Source of the DNA: Candidatus Kapaibacterium sp.
GTDB lineage: Bacteria > Bacteroidota > Ignavibacteria > OLB7
Direction: 5' to 3'
NCBI GenBank assembly: GCA_039917235.1
Contig: JBDSJW010000481.1
Coordinates: 1-39,884 of the forward strand
DNA: 39,884 bases
Of the stretch, positions 6,465-28,800 are shown in pieces (position 1 is the first letter of the stretch; each line of letters begins with the position of its first letter). The notes beneath the pieces are model-generated. The model did not search any database, was not told the DNA's origin, and saw nothing but the letters and a program-made list of their open reading frames with translations. A program made the position numbers and the translations under genes.

Positions 6465-6500
6465 GGTGGTAGGGGCGATTCGTGAATTGCCCCTACCACC
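6465..6500. terminator. 12-bp GC-rich hairpin between convergent genes (possible bidirectional terminator; no clear U-tract)
   Basis: GGTGGTAGGGGC (6465-6476), a 12-nt loop, then GCCCCTACCACC (6489-6500). It sits between the stop at 6447 (+) and the stop at 6493 (-), and the right arm overlaps the minus-strand stop codon. Confidence 0.4.
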
Positions 6501-8505
6501 TCGTACTCAGCGTGGCGCTTAACAGAAACTCGTTATAATTGCTCGTCGATACCACAAAGCTCCGATAGACATTCCGCTGCGCGCTTACCTCGAACACCCC
6601 GAAATCCCACAGTCCAACCGAACTGGTAATAAAGAATCCGACGTTATCATCGGTCCCTCCCTGCTTCGAAATGTTGAAGCCGGCCGTGTTGTTCCAGATA
6701 TCGAACGCGGTATATGATGCCCCGAGATCGACCGATAGAAGCGTGTTGGCGCTATCCCCCGCCGCCTGTAGCGATGACGATGTCACGCCGACGCTGAGCG
6801 ATAATGGGAACGCGAAGTTCACAAACTGATTGGCCCCGATCGTCGTGACGCCGTAATCGCTTATCCCCTGGTAGGAATTGCTGTTCTGCCGCGAAAAATT
6901 CACCGTGGTCCCGCCGTTAACCCCAAACACCTTGTAGTTATACCCCGCCGTGGCGGAGAGAAGCGATGTCGTGTTGTTGATATCGACCAGGTTGAGCGTG
7001 TCGGAGGCATCGCGATAGCGCTGCTCGTATGGGGAATATTGAAGGCGGAGATAGGGGTATTTCGAGAAGTTCAGCCCAAGCCCAACGCCGTACGAGAAGA
7101 TCGTCGTCTGCGAGGTCTTGAACGTCGGGAAGACATTGTCCATGTCACGCTTCACAAACACCGTCGCGGTGATCTGACGACGGAGGAATTTCTGCTCCAG
7201 GTTGGCATCCCAGCGGAGATTATCGTTTCTGAGCGATGGCACACCGAGTGAGAAATACGCCGGCCCAACCTTCCTGAGCGATGCCGTCAGCCGCGTATCG
7301 GTCTCCGGCAGCCTGATGATCGACCGCAACGCATACGCATAATCGACAACGCTGGAGATATTCGGGTCCACGGAGTTCCGCACAAAGTCCGGGATCTCGC
7401 TGCTCTGAAATCTCGCCGCCTCCTGATCCCCCGTCAGAAGCGATCCCGATCCCTCCGCCTGAAGGAGAAAATGATCCTCGAAGAGCGGAACATTGATATC
7501 CATCCCCAGAACGTAATTCGCTTTCGGCGTAACCGGCAGGCCGTTGCTGTCCAGCGGCAGCGAGCTTTTATCATCCTTCGCGTAGACGCCGGTGACGATG
7601 AAATGCCCGCCATCCTTCTTTCCATACCCGAGCCGGGCCGCGAAGAGCGTTCTGGTATATGATGGATTATTCAGCACCGTGTCGATCGACCCCGGCTGGA
7701 ATGAGCGCGGCAGAAGGATTGAGCGCTGCGTTTTTCCGGCCGCCGCCGCCACGTAGAACATGCCGGGATTCCACTCCACGTTCGCCCCGGTCACCGGAAC
7801 ATCGTTCAGCGTCAGGGGCGTATAATTCGGATAGGTGACGCCGACGGAGAGGGCGGGAAAATTGGCGAAGAACTTCTCCGATGCCGAGACCAGCCCAAGT
7901 TTGTCAAGCTGGCTCATGCTCTCGGAAAGCGCCTTGTCCTTGATCTTCTCGATATCGGCGTACTCCTTCAAATGATCAAGCTCGCGCAGCTTCTCCTCGC
8001 CGATACCCCCCAGCGAATCGCGCAGGCGCTCCACCCCGCCGGCCGCGTCCTGCAATCGCTTCAGCTCCTCGATCTCGCTCACCTTCTCGTAGGCGCGCTG
8101 AAGGATCTCCCCCTCCAGCTTGTGATAATCCAGATCGAAGCTGATGCTGTTCATGTTCTGGCGGTAGATGCTCTGCTCCGTGGAGAGGACAAGGTTAACC
8201 GTAAATGGGACATTGTAGAAGCTGAGCGTGGGGCTTAGTTCCATCCGCACGAAATCCGCTGGCGTCTCCTGATATGTCCCCTGCCGGTTCGCGGTCTGCG
8301 CGTACATCCTGGCGCTGCCGGAGAAGAGAAACGGCGATTGGGCCGGGGCTGGAACCGGCGTGGGGCTTACGGCGCTCCCTGAGTCAATCGGCGGAGCCGG
8401 CTGCGCGGATGCCCCGGCGGATGCAAACGCCGCGATCATCGAAACCAGCAACGATTGAAAAAGCACGCGCCGGTATCCGCCATTCGAAACAACCCTGACC
8501 GCCAT
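6493..8505 (-). CDS. Outer-membrane beta-barrel protein with an N-proximal coiled-coil segment (hypothetical)
   Basis: ATG at 8505 follows GGAAAGG and gives MAVRVVSNGGYRRVLFQSLLVSMIAAFASAGASAQP, a signal peptide. The charged heptad-like stretch LEGEILQRAYEKVSEIEELKRLQ...KIKDKALSESMSQLDKL is followed by ~450 aa of alternating amphipathic strands ending ...LSATLSTRW, an aromatic terminus. Confidence 0.75.
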   Translation of the reverse strand: MAVRVVSNGGYRRVLFQSLLVSMIAAFASAGASAQPAPPIDSGSAVSPTPVPAPAQSPFLFSGSARMYAQTANRQGTYQETPADFVRMELSPTLSFYNVPFTVNLVLSTEQSIYRQNMNSISFDLDYHKLEGEILQRAYEKVSEIEELKRLQDAAGGVERLRDSLGGIGEEKLRELDHLKEYADIEKIKDKALSESMSQLDKLGLVSASEKFFANFPALSVGVTYPNYTPLTLNDVPVTGANVEWNPGMFYVAAAAGKTQRSILLPRSFQPGSIDTVLNNPSYTRTLFAARLGYGKKDGGHFIVTGVYAKDDKSSLPLDSNGLPVTPKANYVLGMDINVPLFEDHFLLQAEGSGSLLTGDQEAARFQSSEIPDFVRNSVDPNISSVVDYAYALRSIIRLPETDTRLTASLRKVGPAYFSLGVPSLRNDNLRWDANLEQKFLRRQITATVFVKRDMDNVFPTFKTSQTTIFSYGVGLGLNFSKYPYLRLQYSPYEQRYRDASDTLNLVDINNTTSLLSATAGYNYKVFGVNGGTTVNFSRQNSNSYQGISDYGVTTIGANQFVNFAFPLSLSVGVTSSSLQAAGDSANTLLSVDLGASYTAFDIWNNTAGFNISKQGGTDDNVGFFITSSVGLWDFGVFEVSAQRNVYRSFVVSTSNYNEFLLSATLSTRW

Positions 8506-8592
8506 GAGCAAACACCTTTCCCAGCAGGGATATTGATTGATCTTGTTCAATGCATAACCGGAACGTTTCACCAGCGCCGGAGAAAGTTGTAC

Positions 8593-8619
8593 GGGGACGT
8601 TTGAAACGTCCCCCGACAT
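8593..8619. repeat. 27-nt palindromic REP-like unit, copy B
   Basis: GGGGACGTTTGAAACGTCCCCCGACAT matches 1208-1234 at 26 of 27 positions. It lies in the 138-nt gap between the 1450-aa gene stop (8644) and the barrel gene start (8505). Confidence 0.8.
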
Positions 8620-8643: not shown

Positions 8644-11600
8644 TTACAGCAGGATCGTATCGGCATAGACCAGCCGCTCGATGGAATCCTTGGTGGTATA
8701 GATCGCCATGCCGTCCTTGTCGGTCTTTCCATCCTTCAGCATGTTCGCCTCGCGCTCATTTGCAAGGCTTACCGTCGCAACGTCAGCATCGGCGTAGAGG
8801 CGTTCGTATTCCCGGATCGCCAGGCGGTACGGTTTTCCGCCAAGCTGCTTCGGCTTTTCGGGAAGGTTGACCTGCGCCATCCAGACCATCTTCGACTCGT
8901 ACTGCTGGAACGGGGCAAGCTCGATATCGGTAAGCTCCTTGGAAACCGGCGCCCAGCCCATCTCCCCCACCACATCGTAATCGATCCCCGGAACCGGCGC
9001 CTCCACCGTCACGGTCAGCCGCCGGCTGTAGCCGACGTTCTTGTAGGTCTTCTTATCGGCCGGGTTGAATCCCTCCGACTTGCTGAACTGGTTGATGCCG
9101 TGAACGCCGGAAACCATCACCCTGATCGCCTTGTCGGAATCGAACGTGACAGCGGCCACGCGATCCGGGGCAAGCTGCGCGAAGTCCGTCATCACCACGC
9201 GGGAGAGATGCGCGTCGGTGATCGAGTTGGGCTGGTAGCGGGCCAGCGCCAGCCGGACGAACGGGTAGTACGACTGGCCGGCATCCACCACGATATCGCA
9301 GAACCAGAGTTGCCGATCCTCATCGAATTCCACCACATGCGGCGCCACTGAAACCACCGGATACGGCTTTCCCGCCACATTGCGAAGCTCATCCAGGCTC
9401 AACCCGCTCACCTCGCCATTATCGGGATTGGTGGAGATCGGAAAATCGGAGGCGGACGGGGTGGACTTCGTGTAATCCGAGCCCCAGACCGGGTCCATGC
9501 CCCACTGCGTTACATACGGCTTCATCAGATCGCTCTTCGTATCGCTGATGCTGTCGTAGATACCGCCGCCGCCGCGGAGTACCACCCCCAGCATCTCCCC
9601 CTCGCCAGTGGAATACCACGGGCGATCCATATAGACGCGCAGGCCGCCACCACATCGCCGGCTGACAATGTCGTTGCCGATCTTCTGCGGCGGATCCCAT
9701 CCGAACGTCGGGATAACGTAGAGGACTTTCGGGGCGTCCGGGCGGGCGGAGCTGCGGATATTCACCGTGAACTCATCCCCCTCGCGCGTCAGGTTCTTCG
9801 GATCATCGGTGATAAGCGTCGGAAAATACTCGCGGAACCGCGTGGTGCCGAGTATATGATAGCGCACCATCCTGTGCTTGGTATCGCCGAACTCGTGACG
9901 GAAATCCTTCTGGTCCAGCGTGATCCATTTCTTATCGGCGGGATCGCCGGTGGCCGGATAGGCTATCGGGATCGGGAGCTTATCGGGATAGAACTCCTCG
10001 ATCTTCGCCTCGAACACATGCGCGCTCCCCTTGATGATCTGGTACTGGCCGGGATGGCTTGCCTCGTGCTCCCCGTCGCGCGGGACCGGCTCGGTCAGGT
10101 AATCCACCGGCTCATCCCAGGCGGCAAAGAGATCGATCTTTCCGGTGCTCCTCACCGAAAGCTGGAACAGCCCCTTCAGATCCACATAGGTATCGCCGAT
10201 CAGGTTCTTGATCCCCTCCAGCTTCTTGATCGTCGGCTTGCAGAGGGGCTGCTGCACGGCATGGACCAGCGTCATGGTGCGAAACGGCGTCATCATCCAG
10301 TGAAGGCCGGTGGCCGCGTCCTGCATCAACTCGCCGAACTTCGGAGCCCCCTTCATCCACTGGGCAAGCCCCATCTGCTTCACGTCGCCGATATCCAGAT
10401 AGCTGCTGTACTGCACCGTCAGCTTCTCCCCCTTCCCCAGATAGACATCCAGGACGCGCTCGGATGGGTCCCACTTTGTCACCCCGGCGTGCGGCTTTGC
10501 ATCGCAGTAATCAGGGTCGTCGATGATCTCGCTCACCCGCAGGAGAAACGATTCCTTCAACGGCCATTCGCCGCTGAAGGGGATCTTCAGCGTGCCGAAC
10601 TTCTCCGATGAGCCGTTGTTGGGAAGCCCGCGGAACGCAACCCCGCGCGAAAACGGATCGGGGAGATACGGAAGCGCGACCTTTGCCTCGTGATGGATCA
10701 GATACTGCCCCGCCTCCGCCGCCGGAGCGTCGGGGTTGAGGGGGTTGATAATGTAGTTCTCCGGGTGCGGCGCCCACTCCGGCTTCGATGCCTCCATGTC
10801 CCCCTTCAGAATGGGATACGGAGGATGCGCCTTCACATCCGGCGGCGTCACAAGGATGATCTGGTTCGGATACGGCACCGGCGTGGGAGACCCGGTGTTG
10901 ATATCGATGATCTCGCGATCGAAGAACGTCCCCATCTCCTTCTTGGAGATGTTGTACGCCCTGGCAATCCCCGACGGCCCCGATTTAATCTCCTCGTCGA
11001 ACATCGAATGCGTCTCCGCCATCAACTGCGATGTCTTCGGCGGGACGATATGCCGGCTGGTCTCCTTGTCGTACTCAAGCCCGGTGAGCGTATTCAGCGC
11101 CGAGGTGTACGTGGCCGTGTTCTTGTCGTAGTTGCTCCGGATCACCACATGCTCCACCGATTCCCCCTCGAACTTCAGCCAGCGGAGAATCACCGCCGGC
11201 GGCGGAACCGGCTCGAACCGGGAGTAGAGAACCTGGTCGGTCACCTGCGTCTCATCGGTAGAGGAGAGCGGCTCGCTGTTGCCGGCCAGATCGACGGCGC
11301 GGGCGCGGAACCTGTAGACCTTGCCGAACCGGAGCATCGGAAGCGTTTCGGACGTGGCCCTGAAGCTCGTCTTCAGGTTGATCCCCGGCGGCAGCATCCC
11401 TCCCGATGGATCATCGGTCACATTCTCCCCCTGCGCCGCCTTCGGCGATCCGTCCGGCTTGTAGGTGTCCGGGGCGATCGTCTTCCCCGGCCGCTTTGCC
11501 ACAAGGCTCCATCCCTTCCAGCGGAAGAGCATTTCATGAAGATAGAGATCGCTGGAACCGCCATCCTTGGAGGATGTCGAGGCCCCCTTCACATATCCCT

Positions 11601-12996
11601 CCTCATCATTGATCTCGATCTTCTTCACGCCGTCCGCCGTCATCGTATAGACTCCGTCGCGACGGCAGAGGGAGAGCCATTTGCCGTCGAACACATCCAC
11701 GCGGTAACCGCGGAGGAGATCATCGGCGTAGAAATCATCGATCGGCCCGGCGGCATTGGCGGCCACGTTCCGCTTGCCGAAATCGTGGAAGAGCTGCGCC
11801 AGGAAGACCGCGCGGTTGAATTTCAGCACGCCGATTCCGCCGGAGCGGAGCGCGGGAAGCGCCGCCTCGTTCGGGGAGGAGTAGGCGCGGCTTTTCGGAT
11901 CGACCAGGCGATAGAGATTGCCGGCGAAATCGACAGCCTTCATCGCGCTGCCGTCAACATCGATCTGCACAACGTCGAACGGGCTTTTCGTCTGCGGGTC
12001 GTGCCGGTCATTGGCCCCTTCAAGCTTCAGCATCCCATCGCGCAGATCGCTTCCGGCTCTCGGCCGCGGGCGGAACGATCCATCCGGCGTCAGCACGGTC
12101 CAGGGACGGATGGCGTTTGCATCGGAGAAGCCCTGGCCGCCGGCCTTGAACTTCACACGGATCTTGTTGAACGCAACGGCGGGCTTCGGTATCACCACCT
12201 CGATCACAATCCCCAGCCGCCGCTCCAGTTCCGGGTAATCGGAGAGGGACGCGAGTATCTGATGGAAGTCGATATCGGGAACGGCGATGCGGTGCGGAAC
12301 CAGCGCCACGTTCGGCTTTTCGAGATAGCTGGTGGTGGTCTCCGGGCGATCGTAGAAACGCGCCGCCTGCTGGAAGGAGAACTGCTGGAGCGATGTAAAC
12401 CCGTAGTCGGAGAACCTGCGAGCGTCCAGCACCTTGTCCCGCTTGAGGAACAGATCGGGATTGGGCGGATGCTTTACCAGAACCGCGAGCGACTGGTCCG
12501 GGCGATAGTTGATATAGCCGAACGTATTGCGGATGTTATGGAGCGTGTCGTCGGTATCGATGTTCGGATGGCTGTTCGGCGATGACGAGCCGATTGCCGC
12601 GTACGTATCCTTCAGAAACGAGAGGACGCCGCGAGCCGGATAGGAACGGAGCTGCCGGTTCTGATAATCGGGATAGTTGTACGGCTTTACCGACGTGCTT
12701 GCCTTGAAGATGCTCTTCCAGAGCCCGGGATCGCCGTAGACATCCCCCGTTGTGGAATTCTTCTTCACCCGCTCGGCCGGAATCGGGAGCGGGCTGGAAT
12801 CGATCTCCACAAAGAAATCGAGCGATTTGAGCTTCCCCGGCCAGTGCCCATTGGCAGCGTTCCAGAAGTCGGGGAACTCATCGAGACGTTTCGGGCTCCC
12901 CGGCGTCAGACGGGGGGAAATGTAGATCGAGAGTTTGAGCTTGTCCCCTTCCACGCCGTGCGGCAGCGCTGTCCAGAGTAGTTTCTGACTTGCCAT
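8644..12996 (-). CDS. Giant hypothetical protein, 1450 aa, no recognisable signal peptide or catalytic motif
   Basis: Uninterrupted 4.35-kb ORF with balanced K/D/E/N/Y/F-containing composition, whereas the antisense frames are Arg/Pro/His-rich. The ATG at 12996 is preceded by AGGGAAG and lies 33 nt after the upstream gene stop. N-terminus MASQKLLWTALPHGVEGDKLKLSIYISPRL has no hydrophobic leader. Confidence 0.9.
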   Translation of the reverse strand: MASQKLLWTALPHGVEGDKLKLSIYISPRLTPGSPKRLDEFPDFWNAANGHWPGKLKSLDFFVEIDSSPLPIPAERVKKNSTTGDVYGDPGLWKSIFKASTSVKPYNYPDYQNRQLRSYPARGVLSFLKDTYAAIGSSSPNSHPNIDTDDTLHNIRNTFGYINYRPDQSLAVLVKHPPNPDLFLKRDKVLDARRFSDYGFTSLQQFSFQQAARFYDRPETTTSYLEKPNVALVPHRIAVPDIDFHQILASLSDYPELERRLGIVIEVVIPKPAVAFNKIRVKFKAGGQGFSDANAIRPWTVLTPDGSFRPRPRAGSDLRDGMLKLEGANDRHDPQTKSPFDVVQIDVDGSAMKAVDFAGNLYRLVDPKSRAYSSPNEAALPALRSGGIGVLKFNRAVFLAQLFHDFGKRNVAANAAGPIDDFYADDLLRGYRVDVFDGKWLSLCRRDGVYTMTADGVKKIEINDEEGYVKGASTSSKDGGSSDLYLHEMLFRWKGWSLVAKRPGKTIAPDTYKPDGSPKAAQGENVTDDPSGGMLPPGINLKTSFRATSETLPMLRFGKVYRFRARAVDLAGNSEPLSSTDETQVTDQVLYSRFEPVPPPAVILRWLKFEGESVEHVVIRSNYDKNTATYTSALNTLTGLEYDKETSRHIVPPKTSQLMAETHSMFDEEIKSGPSGIARAYNISKKEMGTFFDREIIDINTGSPTPVPYPNQIILVTPPDVKAHPPYPILKGDMEASKPEWAPHPENYIINPLNPDAPAAEAGQYLIHHEAKVALPYLPDPFSRGVAFRGLPNNGSSEKFGTLKIPFSGEWPLKESFLLRVSEIIDDPDYCDAKPHAGVTKWDPSERVLDVYLGKGEKLTVQYSSYLDIGDVKQMGLAQWMKGAPKFGELMQDAATGLHWMMTPFRTMTLVHAVQQPLCKPTIKKLEGIKNLIGDTYVDLKGLFQLSVRSTGKIDLFAAWDEPVDYLTEPVPRDGEHEASHPGQYQIIKGSAHVFEAKIEEFYPDKLPIPIAYPATGDPADKKWITLDQKDFRHEFGDTKHRMVRYHILGTTRFREYFPTLITDDPKNLTREGDEFTVNIRSSARPDAPKVLYVIPTFGWDPPQKIGNDIVSRRCGGGLRVYMDRPWYSTGEGEMLGVVLRGGGGIYDSISDTKSDLMKPYVTQWGMDPVWGSDYTKSTPSASDFPISTNPDNGEVSGLSLDELRNVAGKPYPVVSVAPHVVEFDEDRQLWFCDIVVDAGQSYYPFVRLALARYQPNSITDAHLSRVVMTDFAQLAPDRVAAVTFDSDKAIRVMVSGVHGINQFSKSEGFNPADKKTYKNVGYSRRLTVTVEAPVPGIDYDVVGEMGWAPVSKELTDIELAPFQQYESKMVWMAQVNLPEKPKQLGGKPYRLAIREYERLYADADVATVSLANEREANMLKDGKTDKDGMAIYTTKDSIERLVYADTILL

Positions 12997-13029
12997 GACA
13001 TCTTCCCTGATAATCCTGATCTGCTTCTG

Positions 13030-16000
13030 TTATGCAAACGCGCGGCAGTATTCCAGCCACGGATCCATGCTTGTCCCGCTTGCGTCGGTATACGGCCCCA
13101 TCAACTGCTCGAACGATGGATCTCCCTTCGATCCGGAGAACTTCCGCTCGCACTCGATATCCACGCTCGCGCTGAAGAAGAGGACATGCACCTCGATCGT
13201 CAGCACCGCCTTCCCAACGCATTTGCCGGAGCTGAACTCGTATGTCAGGCTCAGCTCAAGCTCAAGCGACGCGGAGATCAGCCCGAGCACATCCACCTCG
13301 CCACCAAGGTTGAAGAACCCGGTCAGCGAGCAGTTGTCCTCCCCCCCCTCCTTCACCATCTTGAAGTAGATGCCGGCCATCACATGGACGCCGCCGCTTG
13401 CCACGCCGAAATCGATCGAGATGCTTGCGCCGAACTCGAACGACGCCTCCAGGATGTGAATCCCCGCCGGCGTAAGAACCACGCCGAAGAACCCGCCGCC
13501 GCCGAAGAGCGATACCGTCAGCAGGAACGGCTCATCGCGCGTGCAGAAGTTGAAGCGGACGCTGAGCGGATCGCCGATGAAGGGGATGGTAAACCCGGCC
13601 CCAAGGCTCATATTCTGAAGGCTGAACATGCCGACCGAGATATTCGGCAGCGCAAGCGAGAAGCTGGCATCGATGCCATTCTCCGTGATACTCAGCGCCG
13701 GAGGATCGCTGAAGCCATCCAGCGGTATCAGCTTCTTCAGCGTCTCGATAAAGCTCAGCGGCCCCACAAACTCGATATTGCTCAGCACCACATTCACATC
13801 GGCCTTCTTGCCGGAGCTTGCGAAGAACTGGAGCTTCTCGAAATGCAGCCGCATAAAGCTGAGCGGCGCTATCAGATCGATGATGAAATCCTCAAGCGAG
13901 CAGATGATCTGGAACGATGGAACGCTGTTCCCCTCGGTCTTGGCGCGCACTTCCGCCGCTATCACAAACCCATCGGCGCGGTTCGGGATAAAGAGCGGCT
14001 TGCCAGCCACAAAGCCCCACTCCTTGATCAGCGGGCGCCATTCGAACTTCACCTTCATCTCCTTCGCCATCTCGATGGCGTCGGCGAAGCTCTTGATCTT
14101 CTGCACAAAATCGGCGACGTCCTTCAGCGTGTTGGTGAACTGCGCCAGCCGCGCCAGCGCCTCGTTCTTCAGCGCCGCGTCGATCCCCGGCGTCTTCGGG
14201 ATGTTCGTCGCCATGCTCTGAAGATGCCCGACAAACGTGCTCAGGTCCCCCGGAAGAGCGCCGGCATTGAACGATGTGATATGGCCGATGATGCTGTCGA
14301 TATCCCCCTTCAGCGTGTTCGCCGCCGAGGAGAGGGCGCCGGGAAGCGCCTCCAGCGTCCCCTTGAACGCCTCCACATCCTTCATAAACGCTTCCACCGT
14401 GTTCAGCGCCTCGGTCACGAACTTCGGCATCAGATCCAGCTTGTCGGCACCGAGCGACTGGATGATGGAGAAGAGATCGATGCAGCCGAAGATTTTCGCG
14501 TTCAACCCGCCGAAGAAATCGGCAGGATCGAAATTCCCCACGGTCATATTGTCCACCGATCCAGCCACCGGCCCAAGCTTGCGCGAGAGGCCGGAGATCG
14601 ACATGTTCGGCTTGACCAGGCCGCCGGAGCGGTCCCCCTTTTTGTCGAAGCTCAGGTCGATCCCGCTGCTCGCCATCTTCAGGAACACCTCGCCGACGTT
14701 CGCGCCATCGAACCCGCTCTTCAGATATTCGGTGTGATATTCCACATCCCCCTTGCCGTCGTTCCCCACAAGATGCTTGATGGCGGGGATCAGCAGCTTC
14801 GATTTCTTGACCACCGGGAAGAACCGCGGGGCCATGTAGGAGAGATTGGAATAGACCGTGGGATCGGATGGGACGCGGGCGTTGAAGGTGATGGTATCCA
14901 CCTCATACACCGTATCCCCCAGCTTCTTGCTGGCGGCAAAGGCGACCTTCTGGCCGTTGAACGGCCGCTCCCGCCGCTCCACCGGATATGCCGGCGACAC
15001 CCCGTTGCCGTTGAACTGCTTGGCGATGCTCAGCATCGTCGTATTGGAATCCTGATCGGTGAGCTCCTTGCCGATAAACTGAAGCGGCATGGTGATCTCC
15101 GAGTTCTGCCCGTTGAGATCCTCCAGCACCAGATGGAACTGAAAATCCTTCCCCCCGACCCGCGGCCAGAAGGAGGACTGCAACATCGCGTCGGGGAAAT
15201 CGCTGTTCTCCGGCGGGTCAAGGTTCGGCGTGACAAGCGTGGTGATCTGCACCCGCTTGAACGGCATCTGAAGATCGAACGATTCGCCGTTCTCCTTCAC
15301 GCCTGACCCGCCGAAAAGCTTCTCCGGCTCCCGCACCACGATAAACATCCGCTGCCGCAGATACGCCACCTTCACCGATGAATTATCGGGATGCGGCTGG
15401 AACTTCCGCTCCGTCACCTTGATCAGCGATGCCCTGTGCCCGAACGGAAAGAGAAAACCGGCGTAGACAACGCGGACGTAATTATCGCGTCCCATCGTCC
15501 CGCGATGCCGCCACTCCTCCACCGAAAGCCCCAGCGGCAGCTTGTCCCATGCGCCGCGCGTGTCCATCCATGCGCCAAGCGATGTCAGCATCAGCCGCTC
15601 CACCTTGATCGGCGTCGGCTCGTACTCGGCGCGCAGGATATGGAGATGGAAGTTGGCCGAGAGATGGACGATGTTGTGCCGGTCAAACCCGTCAAGCGAC
15701 ATCCTAAAGGGAACGTTGGCGTGCGGCGGCCAGTGCTGCGTATCGGCCGGATCAAACGCACCGGTGGTATCCAACCCGTTTACCGGCGGCTGGCCCACCC
15801 ACGGCCGTGCCCAGACCGCACGGATCGTCCGCAATGCCGATGTGGAGTCGGTTTCATCAGCCGCCCCCTTGGTTCCGCGCACGGCCAGCCGCGTATGCCA
15901 CAGCTCCGAACGCCCGGTCATCGGCGAGACCACCGGCTTGGTGGCGTGCGCCCAGGCGGAAAGCGCGTGCGGCGAGATGATCAGCCGGTACGGCGATTCG

Positions 16001-18234
16001 ATCGCGGTCTCGTTGGGAGATGGGTTCTTCAGATCCGGCTTTGTGGCAACAAGGTAGAGCCCCGCCAGCGTGGCGTTGATGGCCTTCTCATCCACCGCCA
16101 CAAACTTCGAGATGCCGGAGGTCTTGCCGAGCTGCTGCGTATGCTTCTCGTAGATATACTTCTCGGCAACCGTCGCGTTCCCCTTGAGAGGCCGTCCGCC
16201 AAGATTTCCCGGCTTGATGGTGAGGCTCTTGGTGGTAATAGTCGGGGAGTGCGGGATGATGGTGCCGCCAAGCGTTCCGGCCTTGTAGACTCCCTTCCCC
16301 GGCTCCGCGTTCAACTGGAAGATGGTGTTGATATCGATCACCGTCATCCCCGTGTCCAGCGTCAGCAGCCCCCAGTTGATCGTCTTCGGCGGAAGCGCCG
16401 CGGGGACAACGCTCAGATCGTATTCACCGAGCTTCCCAAGGATCGCCTCAAGCGAATACGGGATCGACGTGGTCCCGGCCGGCACCTTGAAGACCAGCCG
16501 GCTTTTCCCCGCGAACCGCGACTGCACCGGCGGCCGCTTCGGCGTCTCTCCGCCGGTTGCCGCGTCGGGATCGGGAGGGGTGTGCGGCGCGCCCCCTTTA
16601 TCGGGGGGAATCTTCACCGGGACGTGCGCGGTATCGTCAACCTCGAAAAACGCCTCCTCGGCAATGTTCTGCGGCTGGAAATGTGCCACGATATAGGCGG
16701 CGCCGCTTCCGCGCGTCAGCGAGGAGGTACTCCTGGCGATCCTTTCGGATGGAGCGCCCCCATCCGACCTCCTCTTTTCCAGCCCGCCAATGCCGGTGGA
16801 GAGCGAGAGGTTGATAAACTCGAATTCCAGGACGAGAAGATCCTGCGGGCGGATCATCGAGACGCGCATATTCTGCACGACCATCTTCACCGCGCCATCG
16901 CCATCCCCCGGATGGAAATGGACGTAATCGGTGGCGTCGCGCGCGGCGGCCGCCTCCATTCCTCCGGTCACAAACTTCATGCGGCGCCCCGGATCGGCGG
17001 CGACCGGCTGTGCGATCACCCCATCCCCCATCGGCGGCCCGAATGTGCTCAGCAACGCCGGAGCGCAATCCACGCGCCGCGCCTCGTTTCCGGCATGCTC
17101 AATCTCGAACCTCCCCCCCGAGCCGTCATCACCAACCAGCACGCTCCCGTTGGCGGTATGCAGCCAGACAGGATCGGCGCCGTAACGGGCAACCAGCGCG
17201 CTCCGTTCCTCGCCCCCCTCAAACATCATGGCGTAGCGCGGGCGGCGGAGCGGAAGCGAAAAATCATCGCCGCTCCCGCCGATCAGCGAGCCATGCGGAC
17301 GCACCATCACACCGGAGACATCACCGTTCCCCTCGGCCATCAGCGCGCTGGCCCGAGCGCCGTTGCGCCCCTCGCCGGTCTCCACATGAAGCAGATCGAA
17401 CGCGGAGCCATCGAACAGAACGCGCCAGGGATCGCCGGCGGCGGTGGCATGCTCCATCTCCCAGTTCTTATCCCGCCGCTCCATGACGATCAGCGACCGG
17501 AGCGGCATCCGCTGGTCGAGAAGGCTTTCGCTTTTAGGATCGGCAAGGGAGATGCTGGCGGCATCGGAGCGGACGTTCTCCCCCTGACCGTTCAGACGGG
17601 CAACGTCGGAGCCGGCAAGGCGGAGCGTCCAGTCGGGAAAGAATTCAGCATCGGCGGGGCCGTGCAGCGATAGGCCGGAGCCGGGACGGAACTGGCAGAG
17701 AGGCAGATCGGCCTTGATTGCGGAGCGCGCCGCAACCGCGCCGGCAAGCCAGCGCTCCAGCGGCAGCGTGGCGGAAAATCCTCCAAGTGCCAGATTGAGC
17801 TTCATCTTCCGGCCGAGCAGACCGGGATGGATCTCGCAGGAGAAATCGGCGGGAAGATCTGTTCCGGGATAGAGCGCGCCGGACATCTCCACGCGGATAT
17901 GCCCCCCTTCACGCTCCACCGCGATCGACGGCGAGCCGCCGAACCGCGCCGTATCGATCACCCAGCGCTCCTTTCCGCCAAGACGGAAGGCAATGCGGTT
18001 CCGATCGCCGGTGATATCGAACTCCCCCAGCATCGTGGGCGCCACCGCTTTCGCGGCGGGCGTTCTGATCGAAAGGGCCGCGCCGGCGCTGACCGAAAGG
18101 CCGAGCAACTGGCGGCGTGAAAGCCGGAGCCCCGCCGCATTGGCGGCAACGTCGTCCAGCAATCCTCCCGATCTGCGCAACCGTAGTGGACGCTCCGCTC
18201 GTAACGCGGCGATGTTCAATCGCAGTGGTCGCAT
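13030..18234 (-). CDS. Giant hypothetical exported protein, 1734 aa, with a twin-arginine (Tat)-type leader and a Gly-rich hydrophobic beta-strand C-terminal module
   Basis: Uninterrupted 5.2-kb ORF. The N-terminus contains ...LRLSRRQLLGLSVSAGAALSIRTPAAKA-VAPT, i.e. an S-R-R-x-L-L motif, a mildly hydrophobic h-region and an AxA site. The C-terminus reads ...FLLTVSLFGGGGFFGVVLTPAGIHILEASFEFGASISIDFGVASGGVHVMAGIYFKM.... Confidence 0.9.
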   Translation of the reverse strand: MRPLRLNIAALRAERPLRLRRSGGLLDDVAANAAGLRLSRRQLLGLSVSAGAALSIRTPAAKAVAPTMLGEFDITGDRNRIAFRLGGKERWVIDTARFGGSPSIAVEREGGHIRVEMSGALYPGTDLPADFSCEIHPGLLGRKMKLNLALGGFSATLPLERWLAGAVAARSAIKADLPLCQFRPGSGLSLHGPADAEFFPDWTLRLAGSDVARLNGQGENVRSDAASISLADPKSESLLDQRMPLRSLIVMERRDKNWEMEHATAAGDPWRVLFDGSAFDLLHVETGEGRNGARASALMAEGNGDVSGVMVRPHGSLIGGSGDDFSLPLRRPRYAMMFEGGEERSALVARYGADPVWLHTANGSVLVGDDGSGGRFEIEHAGNEARRVDCAPALLSTFGPPMGDGVIAQPVAADPGRRMKFVTGGMEAAAARDATDYVHFHPGDGDGAVKMVVQNMRVSMIRPQDLLVLEFEFINLSLSTGIGGLEKRRSDGGAPSERIARSTSSLTRGSGAAYIVAHFQPQNIAEEAFFEVDDTAHVPVKIPPDKGGAPHTPPDPDAATGGETPKRPPVQSRFAGKSRLVFKVPAGTTSIPYSLEAILGKLGEYDLSVVPAALPPKTINWGLLTLDTGMTVIDINTIFQLNAEPGKGVYKAGTLGGTIIPHSPTITTKSLTIKPGNLGGRPLKGNATVAEKYIYEKHTQQLGKTSGISKFVAVDEKAINATLAGLYLVATKPDLKNPSPNETAIESPYRLIISPHALSAWAHATKPVVSPMTGRSELWHTRLAVRGTKGAADETDSTSALRTIRAVWARPWVGQPPVNGLDTTGAFDPADTQHWPPHANVPFRMSLDGFDRHNIVHLSANFHLHILRAEYEPTPIKVERLMLTSLGAWMDTRGAWDKLPLGLSVEEWRHRGTMGRDNYVRVVYAGFLFPFGHRASLIKVTERKFQPHPDNSSVKVAYLRQRMFIVVREPEKLFGGSGVKENGESFDLQMPFKRVQITTLVTPNLDPPENSDFPDAMLQSSFWPRVGGKDFQFHLVLEDLNGQNSEITMPLQFIGKELTDQDSNTTMLSIAKQFNGNGVSPAYPVERRERPFNGQKVAFAASKKLGDTVYEVDTITFNARVPSDPTVYSNLSYMAPRFFPVVKKSKLLIPAIKHLVGNDGKGDVEYHTEYLKSGFDGANVGEVFLKMASSGIDLSFDKKGDRSGGLVKPNMSISGLSRKLGPVAGSVDNMTVGNFDPADFFGGLNAKIFGCIDLFSIIQSLGADKLDLMPKFVTEALNTVEAFMKDVEAFKGTLEALPGALSSAANTLKGDIDSIIGHITSFNAGALPGDLSTFVGHLQSMATNIPKTPGIDAALKNEALARLAQFTNTLKDVADFVQKIKSFADAIEMAKEMKVKFEWRPLIKEWGFVAGKPLFIPNRADGFVIAAEVRAKTEGNSVPSFQIICSLEDFIIDLIAPLSFMRLHFEKLQFFASSGKKADVNVVLSNIEFVGPLSFIETLKKLIPLDGFSDPPALSITENGIDASFSLALPNISVGMFSLQNMSLGAGFTIPFIGDPLSVRFNFCTRDEPFLLTVSLFGGGGFFGVVLTPAGIHILEASFEFGASISIDFGVASGGVHVMAGIYFKMVKEGGEDNCSLTGFFNLGGEVDVLGLISASLELELSLTYEFSSGKCVGKAVLTIEVHVLFFSASVDIECERKFSGSKGDPSFEQLMGPYTDASGTSMDPWLEYCRAFA

Positions 18235-18492
18235 GATAATTTCCGTCTGCTAGTAGAGATAAATTCGATTCGATCCGTCTCCAGCTACATCTGCTTCGTT
18301 AACCTGGGTTCCCGGCGGAACTGTGGGCTGGCGTGCAGCGATTCTCAGAGCGTATGATGTACAAGGCGCGTGACAATCTGCCCGGAAGGGGACCGGCCTT
18401 CCCGACGAAGGCCATTCGATAACAAACTTGTGAAGGCGTGGCGTCCATGGACCCATCGCATACCGCCGTGGCTATTTCCCCGATCCATCCCG

Positions 18493-19563
18493 CTACTGCC
18501 CATCGCACGAGTGGAGCAGCTCCTTCAGAATCGCCGGGGGAATTGTCGGCTTCAGGCCGACGATCAGCGAATCGATATTCCCGCGCACAATCCCGAAATC
18601 CGTCGCCTTCTCCGTCAGGCCGATAAGCGATACGCCGCGATCAAAGTTCTTCAGCATCGTGGGGGTCAGAATCTTCTTTCCATGAAATGCCGAATCGATA
18701 AAGACCCTGTTCTTCAACCCGCCGGACAACGGATCGAAATCAGTTCCGCCGTCGGCGTCCAGCTTCCGTGGCTGATAGGCAAACCACCAGATCTCGCTCT
18801 CACCAAGCGGGAAATCGCCATCGGACGCGCTCACCTTCCATGCGTATTTCCGCCCGGTCGTAAATGGGCGGGAGCTGATGGGAAACTGAAAAACCGTTGG
18901 CGTGATGGAAGGGCGGTCGAACCACGCCGGGTTGGACTGCATCGCATCAAACGGAGTCTGGCGGCCGACTATCTCCACGATCTTCAATCGATAGCGGATC
19001 TGCTGTCCGCGCTTCAGCGGCGACGGCGGCATCCAACTGAAGACCGGGAGCTTGTCCTCCACGATTGATTCATCAGACGGCGATATCAGCACCGGCGGCG
19101 TGGCCTGCTGAACCTCCGCGTTCTTGCAATCCCGGCCGATCACATCCCCATCGTTGCAATCGCGGCGCACCTCCACGCAGATCTCATACGATCCGGTCGG
19201 CGCGCTTCCGGTCCTTATAAAAACATCCTTATACTTGTTGTCAAAGTAGTGAGCATCGATCGGCTGGATCTCCGCGCCGGTAACCATATGGGTTCCGGGC
19301 GCAAGGACAAACCGCGTGGTCGTGGCCTCCACAAGAACCTTGTCCAGGTTCGTCTCGCGGAGACGACCGAACAGGCAGATCGTGATGGGGGCCTGGGTGT
19401 TGTTGACCAGACGGATACGCCAGAGATCGGCGATCTTCAACTGATTTGGAGGAGGCTGGAAGAGGGTGACCTGAACCTGGGACTGGGCGCGGAGGCCGGC
19501 GGGGATAATCGCTGCAAGCACGGCGAAGGCCGCAAGCAGGATAACGGTACGTGCTGATCTCAT
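18493..19563 (-). CDS. Secreted/periplasmic beta-sandwich-like protein (hypothetical), first gene of the cassette
   Basis: ATG at 19563 is preceded by GGGGGAAG and gives MRSARTVILLAAFAVLAAIIPAGLRAQS, a Sec signal. The track start at 19593 is a TTG inside a palindrome. The middle region PPVLISPSDESIVEDKLPVFSWMPP...YRLKIVEI...GRKYAWKVSA...SEIWWF looks like an Ig/FN3-like module. Confidence 0.85.
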   Translation of the reverse strand: MRSARTVILLAAFAVLAAIIPAGLRAQSQVQVTLFQPPPNQLKIADLWRIRLVNNTQAPITICLFGRLRETNLDKVLVEATTTRFVLAPGTHMVTGAEIQPIDAHYFDNKYKDVFIRTGSAPTGSYEICVEVRRDCNDGDVIGRDCKNAEVQQATPPVLISPSDESIVEDKLPVFSWMPPSPLKRGQQIRYRLKIVEIVGRQTPFDAMQSNPAWFDRPSITPTVFQFPISSRPFTTGRKYAWKVSASDGDFPLGESEIWWFAYQPRKLDADGGTDFDPLSGGLKNRVFIDSAFHGKKILTPTMLKNFDRGVSLIGLTEKATDFGIVRGNIDSLIVGLKPTIPPAILKELLHSCDGQ

Positions 19564-21297: not shown

Positions 21298-21906
21298 ATG
21301 AACGATCAGCATCTACGAAACTTCACAGATATCCAGCTTCTGGAATGCATTGCCGCCCGTAACACCGCGGCCGTATCGGTTCTGTACGATCGATTTTCCA
21401 AGCTGATGTATGGCATCATCCTCGCCGTGGTCCGCGACACCGACGATGCCGAGGATATCCTTCAGGAAGTGTTCATGCAGATCTGGAAGAATGCCTCCAC
21501 CTACCAGCCGGCGCTCGGCTCGCCGAAAACCTGGATGGCGCGGCTGGCCCACAACCGGGCAATCGATCTTCTCAGATCGAAGCGATACCGTCAGCGGAAA
21601 TCCGAGGTGGCCGGCCTGGACAGCGGGAACATGGATGCCACCCCTCCCGCCGAATATGTCGATAACAATACATGGCGGCAGACGGTCCACAACGAGCAGT
21701 CAGGCTATATTTCCCGGGCGATGGCGCGGCTGCCGCATGAGCAGCGTAACCTTATCGACATGGCGTTTCTTCAGGGCTACACGCATCAGGAGATCGCCAC
21801 GGCCACCAATATCCCACTCGGCACGGTCAAGACACGGATTCGGAGCGGAATGCAGGAGCTCCGATCATATCTTTCGGGGACATACGTCGAAGTCCCCGGC
21901 GCCTGA
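21298..21906 (+). CDS. ECF-subfamily RNA polymerase sigma-70 factor
   Basis: Region 2 DAEDILQEVFMQIWKNASTY...WMARLAHNRAIDLLR. Region 4.2 helix-turn-helix LPHEQRNLIDMAFLQGYTHQEIATATNIPLGTVKTRIRSGMQELR. Confidence 0.93.
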   Translation: MNDQHLRNFTDIQLLECIAARNTAAVSVLYDRFSKLMYGIILAVVRDTDDAEDILQEVFMQIWKNASTYQPALGSPKTWMARLAHNRAIDLLRSKRYRQRKSEVAGLDSGNMDATPPAEYVDNNTWRQTVHNEQSGYISRAMARLPHEQRNLIDMAFLQGYTHQEIATATNIPLGTVKTRIRSGMQELRSYLSGTYVEVPGA

Positions 21907-22133
21907 CGGCGGAACGGCAGCCGTGTGTGGATGATCGTTGCTGAACAGGCCCGGCAGTTGAAGAACTCCAGACATATACCACGATTTCCCGGAACCGGCA
22001 TCAGCCGGAATACAACGCGCGCGATGTCGCTCGATCACGGCCGATGCAAACCGGAATCGGCTTAATTACGTATTCATACCAAGGCGCAGGTGGGAGATTC
22101 CCACACTTCCCCCCGATTGCAGTTATCAAACTC

Positions 22134-22748
22134 ATGAACACGAACGGCAACAACACTCCTGAGAACCCGGCGGATCAGCCGGAGTTATACGCCCTGAATG
22201 CTCTCTCTCCACTGGAGGCGGCGGCATTTGAGGCGCGGGTTATCAATGGGGACGTGGACGCGGAGGAGCTTGAGAATCATATGCAGACAGTGCTCGCCCT
22301 CTGCGAGGAGATGGCGGCGGTGATGCCCGCTCCCCGACGCGCGCTGAAGGATGCGGTGATGGCGGCGATCGACCCGGCGCCGGCGGCCGAAGGGTTGAAG
22401 CCGGGAGAGCAGATTTTTGTGATGGCCGATGAAGGGGAATGGCAGAGCCCGGGGCTTCCGGGACTTTCGATGAAGATTCTCTATCACGATGACGCGCGCA
22501 AGCGCACCAGTGTGCTGGTTCGTCTGGCTCCCGGCGCAGCGTATCCCGCGCACCGCCATATGGGGCTGGAGGAATGTCTGGTGCTGGAAGGCGATCTTTA
22601 TGTGGATGGTCACTCGCTCAGGGCCGGCGATTACACGGCATCGATGACCGATAAGATCCATATTGACACGCACAGCGAACATGGCTGCCTGCTCCTTTTG
22701 AACACTCCGCTGGATGATGAATTTCTGGAAGAAGGCTACGGCGCGTAG
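22134..22748 (+). CDS. Soluble anti-sigma factor with a ChrR-like C-terminal cupin domain
   Basis: The N-terminus ...ELYALNALSPLEAAAFEARV... resembles RskA-type anti-sigma N-domains. The C-terminus ...VLVRLAPGAAYPAHRHMGLEECLVLEGDLYVDGHSLRAGDY... is a cupin. I saw no TM segment and no HxxxCxxC. An alternative ATG at 22044 adds 30 non-descript residues. Confidence 0.85.
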   Translation: MNTNGNNTPENPADQPELYALNALSPLEAAAFEARVINGDVDAEELENHMQTVLALCEEMAAVMPAPRRALKDAVMAAIDPAPAAEGLKPGEQIFVMADEGEWQSPGLPGLSMKILYHDDARKRTSVLVRLAPGAAYPAHRHMGLEECLVLEGDLYVDGHSLRAGDYTASMTDKIHIDTHSEHGCLLLLNTPLDDEFLEEGYGA

Positions 22749-25820: not shown

Positions 25821-28800
25821 TCATTGCGCGGGGGGGGCGCTCCGTTTGGCGCTTTCAGTAAAGCGGACCGAAACGATTTTCGAAACGCCATCCTCCTCCT
25901 GCGTCACGCCGTACATCGTGTCAGCGGCCGACATTGTGCGCTTGTTGTGCGTGACAATGATAAACTGCGTCTCCTTGGAGAAGCGCCGGACAAGCTGGAC
26001 AAAGCGGTCGATATTTGCGTCGTCCAGCGGCGCGTCCACCTCATCCAGAATGCAGAACGGCGACGGCTTCACCAGGTAGATGGCGAACAGAAGCGCGATT
26101 GCCGTCAGCGTTTTTTCTCCCCCCGAAAGGAGATCGATGGTGTGAGGGCGTTTGCCACGCGGCTTTGCGATAATCTCCACCTGCGCCTCCAGCGGGTCCC
26201 CCTCCTCGATTTTCAGATCCGCCTCATCCCCCTCGGCAAAAAGGGATGTGAAGATATCCACGAAGTTCTTCCTGATCTCCTCGAACGTCTCCATGAACTT
26301 CGTCTGCGCCGTCGTGTTGATCTCATCGATCGTCTCCAGCAGCGTCTTCTCGGCGTTTCGGAGATCATCGCTCTGCCCTTTCAGGAACGCAAAGCGCTCG
26401 CTCTCCTCCTTCCATTCCTCGTATGCCAGAAGGTTGACCGTGCCGAGCATCTTGATCCGTCCCTTGATCTGACGAAGCTCCTCGCGGAGCGCCCCCATCA
26501 GCACCTCGGTCTCATCGCTCGAATAATCCTTGATCTCCAGTTCCACCTCCAGCTCCTCGCGGCCGCGCTGGACCATCGCCTCGGCGCGGAGGCGAAGCTC
26601 GCTGATCTTGATCTCCAGCTCGTGCGTCTGCCCGATCGCCGACTCATATCCCTTCCGTTCCTCGCGCAGCGTCTCGGAATGCTTTACGATCTCCTCGCGT
26701 TTGGCGGCCTGCTGCTTCACGATCTGGTCGCGCCTGATCGTCGCCTCCGAAAGCTCCGCCTTGAAGCTTTCGAGCTGATCGCCCCCCTCGTTCATGGAGG
26801 CTTCCAGCACTTCCAGCTCCTCCTGCGCCCGCTCCCGCTCCACGCGCCGGTTCTCGATCATCCGCTCGGCGTTCTCGCGGTCGCGCCTGATCCTCTCAAG
26901 CTCCACCTTCGCGCTCCGCTCCTCGTTGCGGAAGGAGGCAAGCGAAAGCTGCACCTCGTTCAGGAGTTTGGCGCGCTCGGCAAACCCCGCCTCCACCCGT
27001 TCCAGTTCAACCGCCAGATCGCGCGCGGCCCGCTCTGACTGTTCCTGTTCGGCGCGAAGCTCCGCGCGGCGTGGCTCGGTCCCTTCCAGCAATCCTCCAA
27101 GGCGATGCAGTTCCTCCTCGAATTTTTCCCGCTCGATTGCGTGCTCCTCCAGCAGATCCTCCGCGTACTCCAGCTCGTAATCGACCTGCGCGCGGCGTTT
27201 TTCCACCTGTCCAAGCTCCTGCTGCGCCTTACGGATTCCATCGGAGAGGAGGCCGAGGTTGATCTCGTTATGCTGGCCGGTGACGCGGGCAATCCGTTCC
27301 TCAAGTTCCGCCAGCCCCGCGCGAAGCTCATCAGCCTCGCGGGTCAGCCGTTCAATCTGCTCGCGTTTGCCGATCGTATTTCCCTCGTTCTTCATCTGGC
27401 CGCCGCCGCGGATCACGCCGCCGGCGCGGACCAGCAGGCCATCCAGCGTCACCGCGGTTTCGGCCGCACCGCTGGAGACCACGCCGGTTGCATCCTCCAG
27501 CGTCTCGACAATCAGCGTATGGTTCAGCAGCGTCCGGCGGAGCGCGTCATGCTCCGGCGCCGACGTGCAGAGATCCCCCGCCCAGCCGATCACATTCGGC
27601 CCGTCGATCGTGGCGGGGGATGGCGCGCTGGCGATCCGGTCCAGGCAGACGAAGGTGACTTTCCCCTTCCGGTTGGATGCGAGCGAGTGCATGCCCCGCT
27701 TGGCATCCTCCAGCGTGGGGACAATCAGGTAGTGGGCGGCGCTGCCGAGCGCCGCGGCAACGGCCAGGCGGAAACGCTCATCGGTGGCAAGCGCCTCGGA
27801 GACGGTGATCCGCTCGACGGGGCTCCAGTCCGGCTGGGCAACCAGGAAGCGCACGGACTCATCCTGATCGACAAGGCTGGAGAGAAATTCTATTTTCGAC
27901 TGGCGCGTGTTGATGCCGTTATGAAGATCCTGCGTCCTGCTCCGAAGCTCATCGATCTCCGCGCGAAGCTGCGCCTTCCCCTCCTGTCCCGCCTCGAACT
28001 CCTGCTGCGCGCGGTCCAGCCGGATCTGCGCCGCCGCCTGCTCCGCCTCGATCTCCATCTGAAGCTCCTCCGCCCGCTGCCGGTCGCTCCGCGCCTCCTC
28101 ATCCTCATCATCGAACTGCGAAAGGCGGCCGGAGATATTCTCCATTCGCGCGCGGGTCCGCTCCTCCTCGCCACGCAGCTCGGCAATCCGGTTGATGGCG
28201 GCAATCACCCGCTCCTGCGATCCCTTTGCCTGCCGGCGAAGTTCGTTGACCTCCCCTTCGGCGGAGGAGACCTCGGAGCGCATCGTTTCAAGATCGAACT
28301 CCGCCCCTTCCACCTGCTCCCTGATCCTGATAAGCGCTTCCTCGATTTCCTTCCGGTCGTGCGCCAGCGCCTCGATTCCCCCCTCGGCCTCCATCCTGTC
28401 GCGCTCCGCCCGCTCGATCACGGCGTTCAGCGACCGGCGGCGTTCCTCCGCCACGGCGCGCCGCTGCTCCACCTGCGCAATCCGTCCGCTGATGGCGTTT
28501 ACATCCTTCTGCGCCTCGCCGAGCGCCGCCTCAATCTCCTTGTGCTCCGCCTCCAGCTCCAGCAGCAGCTCCTCCTCCTCGGCAAGCTGCGTATCCAGCG
28601 CCTCCTTTTTTGAGCGCGCCTCCACCAGCCGCACCTCCAGCGGGGAAATCCTGCCGACCGTGGCGCTGTATTCCCGTTCAAGGATTTCCACTTCCAGCCG
28701 CTTCCGCTCCTCATCCAGCTTCGCGAACTCCTCCGCCTTCTTCGCCTGCCGTTCCAGCGAGGAGACCTTCTTGCCGACCTCCTTGATGATATCGTTCACG

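Follow-up and report, generated by a model that had tools for sequence, protein, structure and literature searches.

How large a folded cargo the pathway of twin-arginine translocation (Tat) can move across a membrane, and by what means it avoids leaks, is an open mechanistic question, and a contig of Candidatus Kapaibacterium sp. (JBDSJW010000481.1, assembly GCA_039917235.1, analysed over its stretch of 39,884 nucleotides, hereafter the window) raises it through a single gene. This gene, which we call A (positions 13030–18234), is an open reading frame (ORF) whose translation yields a 1734-aa protein, with a precursor of 187 kDa and 180 kDa left after a predicted cut behind an apparent Tat leader. 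Gene B (8644–12996), encoding a leaderless partner of 1450 aa and 162 kDa, begins 33 nt after the stop of A. Genes A and B, their neighbours C and D, and all their parts described below lie on the minus strand. Is the leader of A a working signal, and might it carry both proteins? We favour, with a rough probability of 0.6, a functional and cleaved Tat signal that exports A, a reading based on sequence, conservation and genomic context. Residues 39–63 would then be a Tat signal that a single clade has acquired within a large family of paired giant proteins whose other members have no leader of this kind.

A translated leader with the anatomy of a Tat signal

The leader of A (residues 1–63, positions 18046–18234) reads MRPLRLNIAALRAERPLRLRRSGGLLDDVAANAAGLRL-SRRQLLGLSVSAGAALSIRTPAAKA and is followed by V64. 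An in-frame stop lies 18 nt before the ATG at 18234, which is therefore the first possible start, so that no longer frame exists for A. Initiation at any of the alternative TTG codons 6, 19 and 25 would retain the twin-arginine (RR) motif, which is lost only with a start at TTG43, GTG64 or ATG68, and ten relatives have their starting ATG at the equivalent M-x-x-x-R-L-N-L. Over codons 1–63, A differs from a 93%-identical relative by ten synonymous changes and a single non-synonymous one, which shows that the leader is translated and under purifying selection. An earlier interpretation of this DNA, made from its letters alone (the sequence-only reading), had delimited residues 1–63 followed by V64, and this reading is borne out exactly; the first-possible ATG, the purifying selection and the equivalent ATG codons of the ten relatives also place the true start upstream of the RR motif, as it had supposed.

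Immediately upstream of this ATG, a block of about 63 nt (18235–18297, minus strand) shows two differences from the 93% relative L010, and beyond it the upstream sequences of the two loci cannot be aligned. The block is not conserved in relatives at 57–60% identity. It may be a promoter or an element of the 5′ untranslated region, or simply a recombination boundary.

The Tat consensus is (S/T)-R-R-x-F-L-K, preceding an uncharged h-region of some 13 or more residues, less hydrophobic than in Sec (general secretory) signals, and a c-region with the cleavage site, which has small residues at -3 and -1 and often a basic one nearby. For A, we assessed the leader with the published TatP pattern (PMC1182353) and the curated hidden Markov models (HMMs) TIGR01409 and PF10518. 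The motif S39-R40-R41-Q42-L43-L44 (18103–18120) agrees with the TatP default pattern, RR.[FGAVML][LITMVF], and RRQLL is its sole match among the eight RR pairs of the whole protein. Behind RR-Q come 14 uncharged Ala/Gly/Ser/Leu residues that make up the h-region (residues 43–56, LLGLSVSAGAALSI, 18067–18108; mean Kyte-Doolittle (KD) hydropathy 1.86). The c-region RTPAAKA (residues 57–63, 18046–18066) brings R57 and P59 and ends with A61 and A63 in A-x-A arrangement, a predicted signal-peptidase site A61-K62-A63/V64 at which, judging from the sequence, cleavage would follow A63. The most hydrophobic 10-residue window of this leader has a mean KD of 1.68, lower than the values of 2.56 and 3.25 obtained for the Sec leaders of genes C and D. 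AlphaFold2 (AF2) models, which we built with family alignments, give residues 22–66 a predicted local distance difference test (pLDDT) score below 50 and a low-confidence helix at 40–54, as would be expected for a leader. The S-R-R-x-L-L motif, the weakly hydrophobic h-region and the A-x-A site of the sequence-only reading have all stood. The Arg-rich n-region of 38 residues that it described has stood in part: the stretch before S39 does contain 8 Arg, together with no Lys, 2 Asp and 1 Glu, but it is not merely charged, as a separate conserved motif, RLNLxALR, lies inside it.

Conservation of the twin arginines

Absence of the RR pair from homologues had been named by the sequence-only reading as an outcome that would refute the Tat proposal, and the pair is conserved. 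A word-indexed search found 49 homologues of A, down to 24% identity. R40 and R41 are invariant in the alignment (A2) of the 36 sequences having the N-terminal region, which reaches down to 27% identity, and [STN]RRx[FGAVMLW][LITMVF] occurs in 39 of the 50 sequences of this first search, the others being truncated records or proteins of a shorter architecture. A scan of one genome per species detected at least 577 loci, and 75 of the best 80 were read in detail. The RR leader is present in every one of the 27 complete long forms that these reference genomes contain, with SRRDIL as its motif in L040 and L042. Finally, an exhaustive HMMER search with residues 1–470 of A returned 441 cluster representatives sharing less than 50% identity with each other. 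Among the 73 with a complete N-terminus, 68 have the RR pair and 67 a TatP-type pattern.

The whole anatomy of the leader recurs across the family. The RR pair, part of the consensus [ST]RR[QEK][ALM]LGL, has a median position at residue 39–40 and is followed by about 16 (14–19) uncharged, Ala/Gly-rich residues with a KD of ~1.6 and by a c-region of the form P-x-[LVMA]-[KR]-A-[VLI]-[GE], in which position -2 is basic. A basic residue in the c-region is a Sec-avoidance feature. The weak family matches of the leader fragments are all of Tat type (PF10518, TIGR01409, the Rieske Tat signal models UCR_Fe-S_N and QcrA_N, formate_TAT and MelC1); one homologue exceeds the TIGR01409 cut-off (20.9 versus 16.7 bits) and two others reach 15.0–15.4 bits. 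The genome encodes the corresponding machinery, with tatC (226 bits, contig C163) and two tatA/B genes (contig C502). From these sequence comparisons, the leader of A looks like a real, family-wide twin-arginine signal.

A leader gained within a leaderless family

The family of A is present in at least 577 species of about ten phyla and has two architectures. Long forms (~1630–1800 aa) combine the N-terminal RLNLxALR motif (N-motif), the RR leader and an additional beta-domain, and occur in Kapaibacteriota/Chlorobiota, Ignavibacteria, Balneolales, Pyrinomonadaceae and Gemmatimonadales. Short forms (~1150–1375 aa), which comprise all those of Actinomycetota and some from diderms, begin at the conserved core, without leader or hydrophobic N-terminus; 44 of 47 short forms have no leader. 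Most of the family is therefore of the leaderless shorter form. Of the 75 rows, 65 entered a maximum-likelihood tree of the core; the remaining ten had failed the core-start pattern or the length filter. In this tree the long RR forms make up one clade (Shimodaira–Hasegawa-like approximate likelihood ratio test (SH-aLRT) support 98) with one short form nested inside, and the predicted export would be a derived state of one clade. Three short forms of Myxococcota (L028, L033 and L064) bear a different RR leader, fused directly to the core, and form a separate clade (SH-aLRT 100), so that RR leaders appear to have been gained at least twice in the family. These three are candidate Tat-exported lipoprotein versions of A: the L028 leader, VSRRGFLKIGTVAAAVTPGLIGAC, has a good lipobox (LIGAC), and those of L033 and L064 have atypical Cys contexts. 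No Sec-type leader was seen on A homologues in 80 loci, and the repeated gain of RR leaders without a Sec leader fits a cargo that has to be folded or assembled prior to export. The phyla are mixed on the core tree, with the Gemmatimonadota sequence L027 beside L022 from Micromonosporaceae (branch lengths 0.12–0.19) and Acidobacteriota inside actinobacterial clades, which implies that the A–B module moves horizontally.

We also considered that short-form loci might encode the N-terminal domain as a separate upstream gene, and rejected this possibility, since every occurrence of the domain detected with phmmer was a fusion inside a long A gene. In the actinobacterial short forms L052, L055, L057, L068 and L075, the longest frames open with Lys/Ala/Thr/Pro-rich repeats (AKKATAKK...) and show a recurring F-x-P-D-P-x-R-L motif before the core; these N-termini may be genuine tails of low complexity, or the starts may be set too far upstream in high-GC DNA.

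A near-obligate partner and an envelope context

A homologue of B is located directly downstream of A in 71 of the 75 loci, and three of the four exceptions correspond to contig ends. With 71 of 72 informative loci, the leaderless 1450-aa protein that the sequence-only reading had singled out as a potential passenger is a near-obligate neighbour. The B proteins start with M..Q.I.WTA.P.G and have no leader or hydrophobic segment in long-form and short-form loci alike. B has no family match in Pfam, NCBIfam, PADLOC or PHROGs and none in the PDB by sequence or profile. The only informative locus without B after A is L077, where an unrelated protein of 572 aa takes its place (11360–13862).

All-against-all clustering of the neighbouring ORFs showed that only A and B are universal. 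It also revealed homologues of two further genes, C or D, beside 19 of the 28 long RR loci and beside none of the 47 short ones. Gene C (6493–8619) codes for a protein that resembles an outer-membrane barrel and ends in ...LSTRW; its leader is of the Sec type (probable start M39, cut ASA/QP), and its homologues are found in 17 loci, only next to long RR forms. Gene D (18493–19563) codes for a 356-aa protein with a strongly hydrophobic Sec leader and a weak match to Ig_Rha78A_N, and its homologues, in 19 loci, are likewise restricted to the vicinity of long RR forms. Neither C nor D could be assigned to a family with Pfam, NCBIfam, PADLOC or PHROGs. Their association with the RR forms puts the latter in an envelope context, although this link is confounded by phylogeny. 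No conserved third gene was found beside the short forms, and the clusters that recur apart from these consist of shadow ORFs within A and B.

In one long-form locus (L004/L047, 6141–9581), the member of the D-like family is a protein of 1146 aa that has RCC1/WD40-like repeats and is encoded directly upstream of A. The cassette of the window is also adjoined by genes for an extracytoplasmic function (ECF) sigma factor, a ChrR-like cupin anti-sigma factor and an SMC protein (21298–22748 and 25821–29369). The same genes stand beside the cassette in L002, a relative at 57% identity; they reflect local synteny among relatives and are not part of the module.

A second conserved element ahead of the arginines

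The N-motif of A (residues 3–12, PLRLNIAALR, 18199–18228; R-x-R-L-N-L-x-A-L-R in the family) stands 27 residues ahead of the RR pair. Across 105 family sequences it is as conserved as the RR pair itself (L 93, N 73, L 89, L 100 and R 95). Four long-form representatives (P0140, P0156, P0170 and P0196) keep this motif and the beta-domain and have neither RR pair nor hydrophobic stretch between the two, which indicates that the N-motif belongs with the beta-domain rather than the signal. Residues 1–10 of A have a pLDDT of 81 in the AF2 model, with a beta-bridge at residue 6, which requires a partner strand in the folded part of the protein; the N-motif thus appears, in this model, docked on folded A. 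As a guess, by analogy with the Tat leaders that bind chaperones, the N-motif could have a pre-export docking or assembly-sensing role. A different scenario, in which the N-motif would be an ancestral strand also present in the short forms, with the RR signal and the beta-domain inserted behind it, was rejected at the HMM sensitivity used: with an HMM made from the 105 N-motifs, no short-form N-terminus scored above 2.3 bits, below the shuffled controls.

Giant proteins without recognisable fold

The N-terminal all-beta domain (residues ~70–470, 16825–18027), with an AF2 pLDDT mostly above 90, exists only in the long forms. It gave no fold match against the PDB with Foldseek (best E 0.018, TM-score, for template modelling, 0.09). 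It is followed by the core common to long and short forms (residues ~471–1255, 14470–16824), which contains the motifs ELWHTRL and GRDxYVRVVY.G.LFPFGHRASL.K.TERKF and shows invariant W, E, R, D and G positions in its alignment (A1). The AF2 model of the core is beta-rich, with pLDDT 80–96 at fragment residues 200–720, the confident part corresponding to residues ~735–1255 of A. Five AF2 helices (fragment residues 741–854) then form a bundle (residues ~1275–1388, 14071–14412), and long beta-hairpins with strands of 13–19 residues occupy the C-terminal region (residues ~1392–1699, 13138–14061). This last region includes the hydrophobic segment PFLLTVSLFGGGGFFGVVLT, with its very hydrophobic FGGGGFFG strand, of which FGGGGFF is invariant; the hydropathy peak of A is at residues 1569–1588.

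We obtained no match for A in Pfam, NCBIfam, PADLOC, PHROGs or the PDB, the latter by sequence and profile. Foldseek searches of both AF2 models against the PDB, and of the core and C-terminal model against BFVD, yielded nothing with E≤1e-3 and a meaningful TM-score. The C-terminal region has weak matches to outer-membrane barrels (PelB, OmpT and the EspP barrel) with probability ≤0.98, E>1e-3 and TM≤0.41. Further weak matches of the hairpins are to porins and LptD, and there are low-probability ones to the microsomal triglyceride transfer protein and to P47 of the botulinum cluster. On these models, the hairpins could be a membrane-inserting or lipid-binding module. Actinomycetota have no outer membrane, and the same C-terminal domain is found in their leaderless proteins; as such it is therefore no barrel of the outer membrane. 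The last 50 residues of A contain no C-terminal transmembrane helix. Likewise, A and B, with 10 and 5 Cys respectively, contain no CxxC, CxxCH, Fe-S spacing or haem motif, so that cofactor insertion would not be the reason for the use of Tat.

Weighing the alternatives

Several observations weigh against a cleaved and functional Tat signal in A. Its motif has L and not F at +2 and G and not K at +4, and it is unlike that of the other Tat candidates of the genome, proteins of 230–560 aa with [ST]RRTF[LM]K, A being three times longer than any of them. The RR pair is at residues 40–41, beyond the first 35 residues, the only ones that TATFIND scans. PF10518 scores the leader fragment of A at 16.4 bits, under its cut-off of 22.7, and TIGR01409 matches A neither on the fragment nor in the whole-genome scan at E≤1. 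The predicted leader, with 63 residues, is far longer than the mean of 37 for Tat leaders (PMC1182353). The mature protein would be larger than FdnGH, which at 142 kDa and ~6.4 nm is among the largest known Tat substrates and underlies the working upper limit of size (2026 review, PMC13186574). In addition, since most family members are leaderless, the A–B pair can work in the cytoplasm, and four long-form representatives with N-motif and beta-domain are devoid of RR pair and h-region. The apparent docking of the N-motif on folded A is also awkward for a leader whose N-terminus has to remain in the cytoplasm and is discarded afterwards.

Part of these observations would be explained if A were not exported at all and stayed in the cytoplasm like the leaderless majority, its RR pair and hydrophobic stretch being a linker, or a loop binding a membrane or a partner, that resembles a Tat signal. 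The missing leader in the 44 short forms and the four long-form representatives, the sub-threshold scores of the curated Tat models, a size beyond any proven Tat cargo and the docked N-motif all agree with this idea, and the TatP pattern alone has 15% false positives on cytoplasmic RR proteins (PMC1182353). We nevertheless consider it unlikely, because the RR pair is invariant and the whole n/h/c anatomy is kept across sequences with less than 30% identity, the segment has the low AF2 confidence typical of leaders, the RR forms alone adjoin Sec-exported and outer-membrane genes, and a second independent RR leader, in one copy with a lipobox, exists in Myxococcota. Alternatively, the RR pair and h-region might target A to Tat and then stay on as an uncleaved signal-anchor, as in Rieske Fe-S proteins. 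The N-motif, upstream of the RR pair and just as strongly conserved, is more easily explained if the segment persists in mature A, the uncharged stretches, at 14–19 residues, could be membrane-spanning, homologues often have L or M instead of A at position -3 of the predicted cut, and there are the weak matches to UCR_Fe-S_N and QcrA_N. This possibility seems about as unlikely in view of the textbook P-x-A-x-A/V c-region of A and the Pro at -5/-6 and Ala at -1 that the family keeps; moreover, 14 uncharged residues ended by R57 are short for a stable membrane helix, and the contact of the N-motif with the folded part in the AF2 model would be impossible across a membrane.

An ordinary signal peptide or anchor of the Sec or signal recognition particle route, with two arginines by chance and A crossing unfolded, is by far the least credible option. 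In its favour, the tripartite n/h/c layout with an A-x-A site is common in Sec signals, and there is a weak resemblance of the C-terminal 300 residues to outer-membrane barrels, normally routed by Sec. Against this, the hydrophobicity of the h-region of A falls far short of that of the Sec leaders of its neighbours C and D, a basic c-region residue is present across the family, the invariance of the RR pair would be left unexplained, and the barrel-like domain also occurs in leaderless proteins of hosts without an outer membrane. We retain the cleaved Tat signal as the preferred reading. The features of the sequence, their conservation, the co-occurrence of the genes and the presence of tat genes are shown here; from them we infer that A is targeted, transported and cleaved, that B may be exported with it, and what the N-motif does.

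Comparison with known Tat substrates

The sequence-only reading had placed A at the extreme upper size for a Tat cargo, and this holds against proven substrates, with 180 kDa versus the 142 kDa of FdnGH. Together with the 162 kDa of B, the combined mass would be ~342 kDa. In hitch-hiker complexes, one subunit has the RR leader and a partner encoded by an adjacent gene has none, both being carried across assembled (PMC10924467, PMC4273604). A and B recall the hitch-hikers of E. coli (HybO-HybC of hydrogenase 2, DmsA-DmsB, FdnG-FdnH and PaoA-PaoBC) in that A bears the leader and B is leaderless and adjacent. By contrast, the known cases are redox enzymes in which cofactor insertion forces folding in the cytoplasm, whereas A and B do not have any cofactor motif, belong to no recognisable family and would together far exceed FdnGH; we infer both their complex and its co-export. 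Transport of B along with A is possible but less likely than not.

Tat leaders that bind chaperones are long and conserved beyond SRRxFLK because a cytoplasmic factor binds them before export (PMC3712460, PMC8428690). By analogy with TorA-TorD, DmsA-DmsD, NapA-NapD and the vestigial NarG leader bound by NarJ, RLNLxALR could play such a role. Unlike in those systems, the A–B cassette includes no chaperone gene of the redox enzyme maturation protein (REMP) type, the N-motif stays with the beta-domain in proteins without RR pair and h-region, and the AF2 model sets it against folded A itself. The N-terminal Tat signal-anchor of Rieske Fe-S proteins (PF10399, UCR_Fe-S_N) also consists of an RR pair and a hydrophobic helix, and its model is among the weak matches of the homologues' leaders. 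That helix stays uncleaved and anchors a folded domain, whereas the leader of A has a canonical A-x-A site and a short h-region, and A has no Fe-S domain. Genome mining has also disclosed Tat substrates without cofactors and tail-anchored proteins (Gallego-Parrilla et al. 2024, PMC10924467). They demonstrate that Tat handles cofactor-less proteins and were recognised by the same logic, an RR leader plus its context; those proteins, however, are of ordinary size, and A does not end in a transmembrane helix.

A possible mechanism

In the mechanism that we propose, A would fold in the cytoplasm and would by then probably have bound its obligate partner B. TatC would then bind S-R-R-Q-L-L and TatB would clamp the weakly hydrophobic h-region, after which the folded protein of 180 kDa (~342 kDa if B rides along) would be moved across the inner membrane and signal peptidase would cut after A-K-A63. 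In the periplasm, A would work with the Sec-exported D and the outer-membrane barrel C. RLNLxALR would not belong to the targeting code; it would act before export by docking on the N-terminal beta-domain or else on a partner, by analogy with the chaperone-binding leaders. The most complete version of this scheme, in which Tat exports a pre-assembled, cofactor-less A–B complex of ~342 kDa, RLNLxALR acts as an assembly or folding sensor and all operate with C and D as a periplasmic envelope machine, is rather unlikely as a whole. If it is true, the A–B complex would be more than twice the largest known Tat cargo, RLNLxALR would present the signal only once docked on the finished beta-domain or B, and A, B, C and D would constitute an undescribed envelope machine built by one clade from an ancestrally cytoplasmic two-protein module.

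Our literature search found no description of the A family, a widespread family of strictly paired giant proteins with no recognisable fold, family or function. In its RR clade, A, perhaps with B, may exceed in size every cargo known for Tat. The family would offer a natural and conserved RR-leader cargo of 180 kDa, possibly with a passenger of 162 kDa, and it comes with built-in controls, namely sister forms that have no leader and an RR leader acquired independently a second time. With such a family, the size limit of Tat would become directly testable on native substrates, not engineered fusions.

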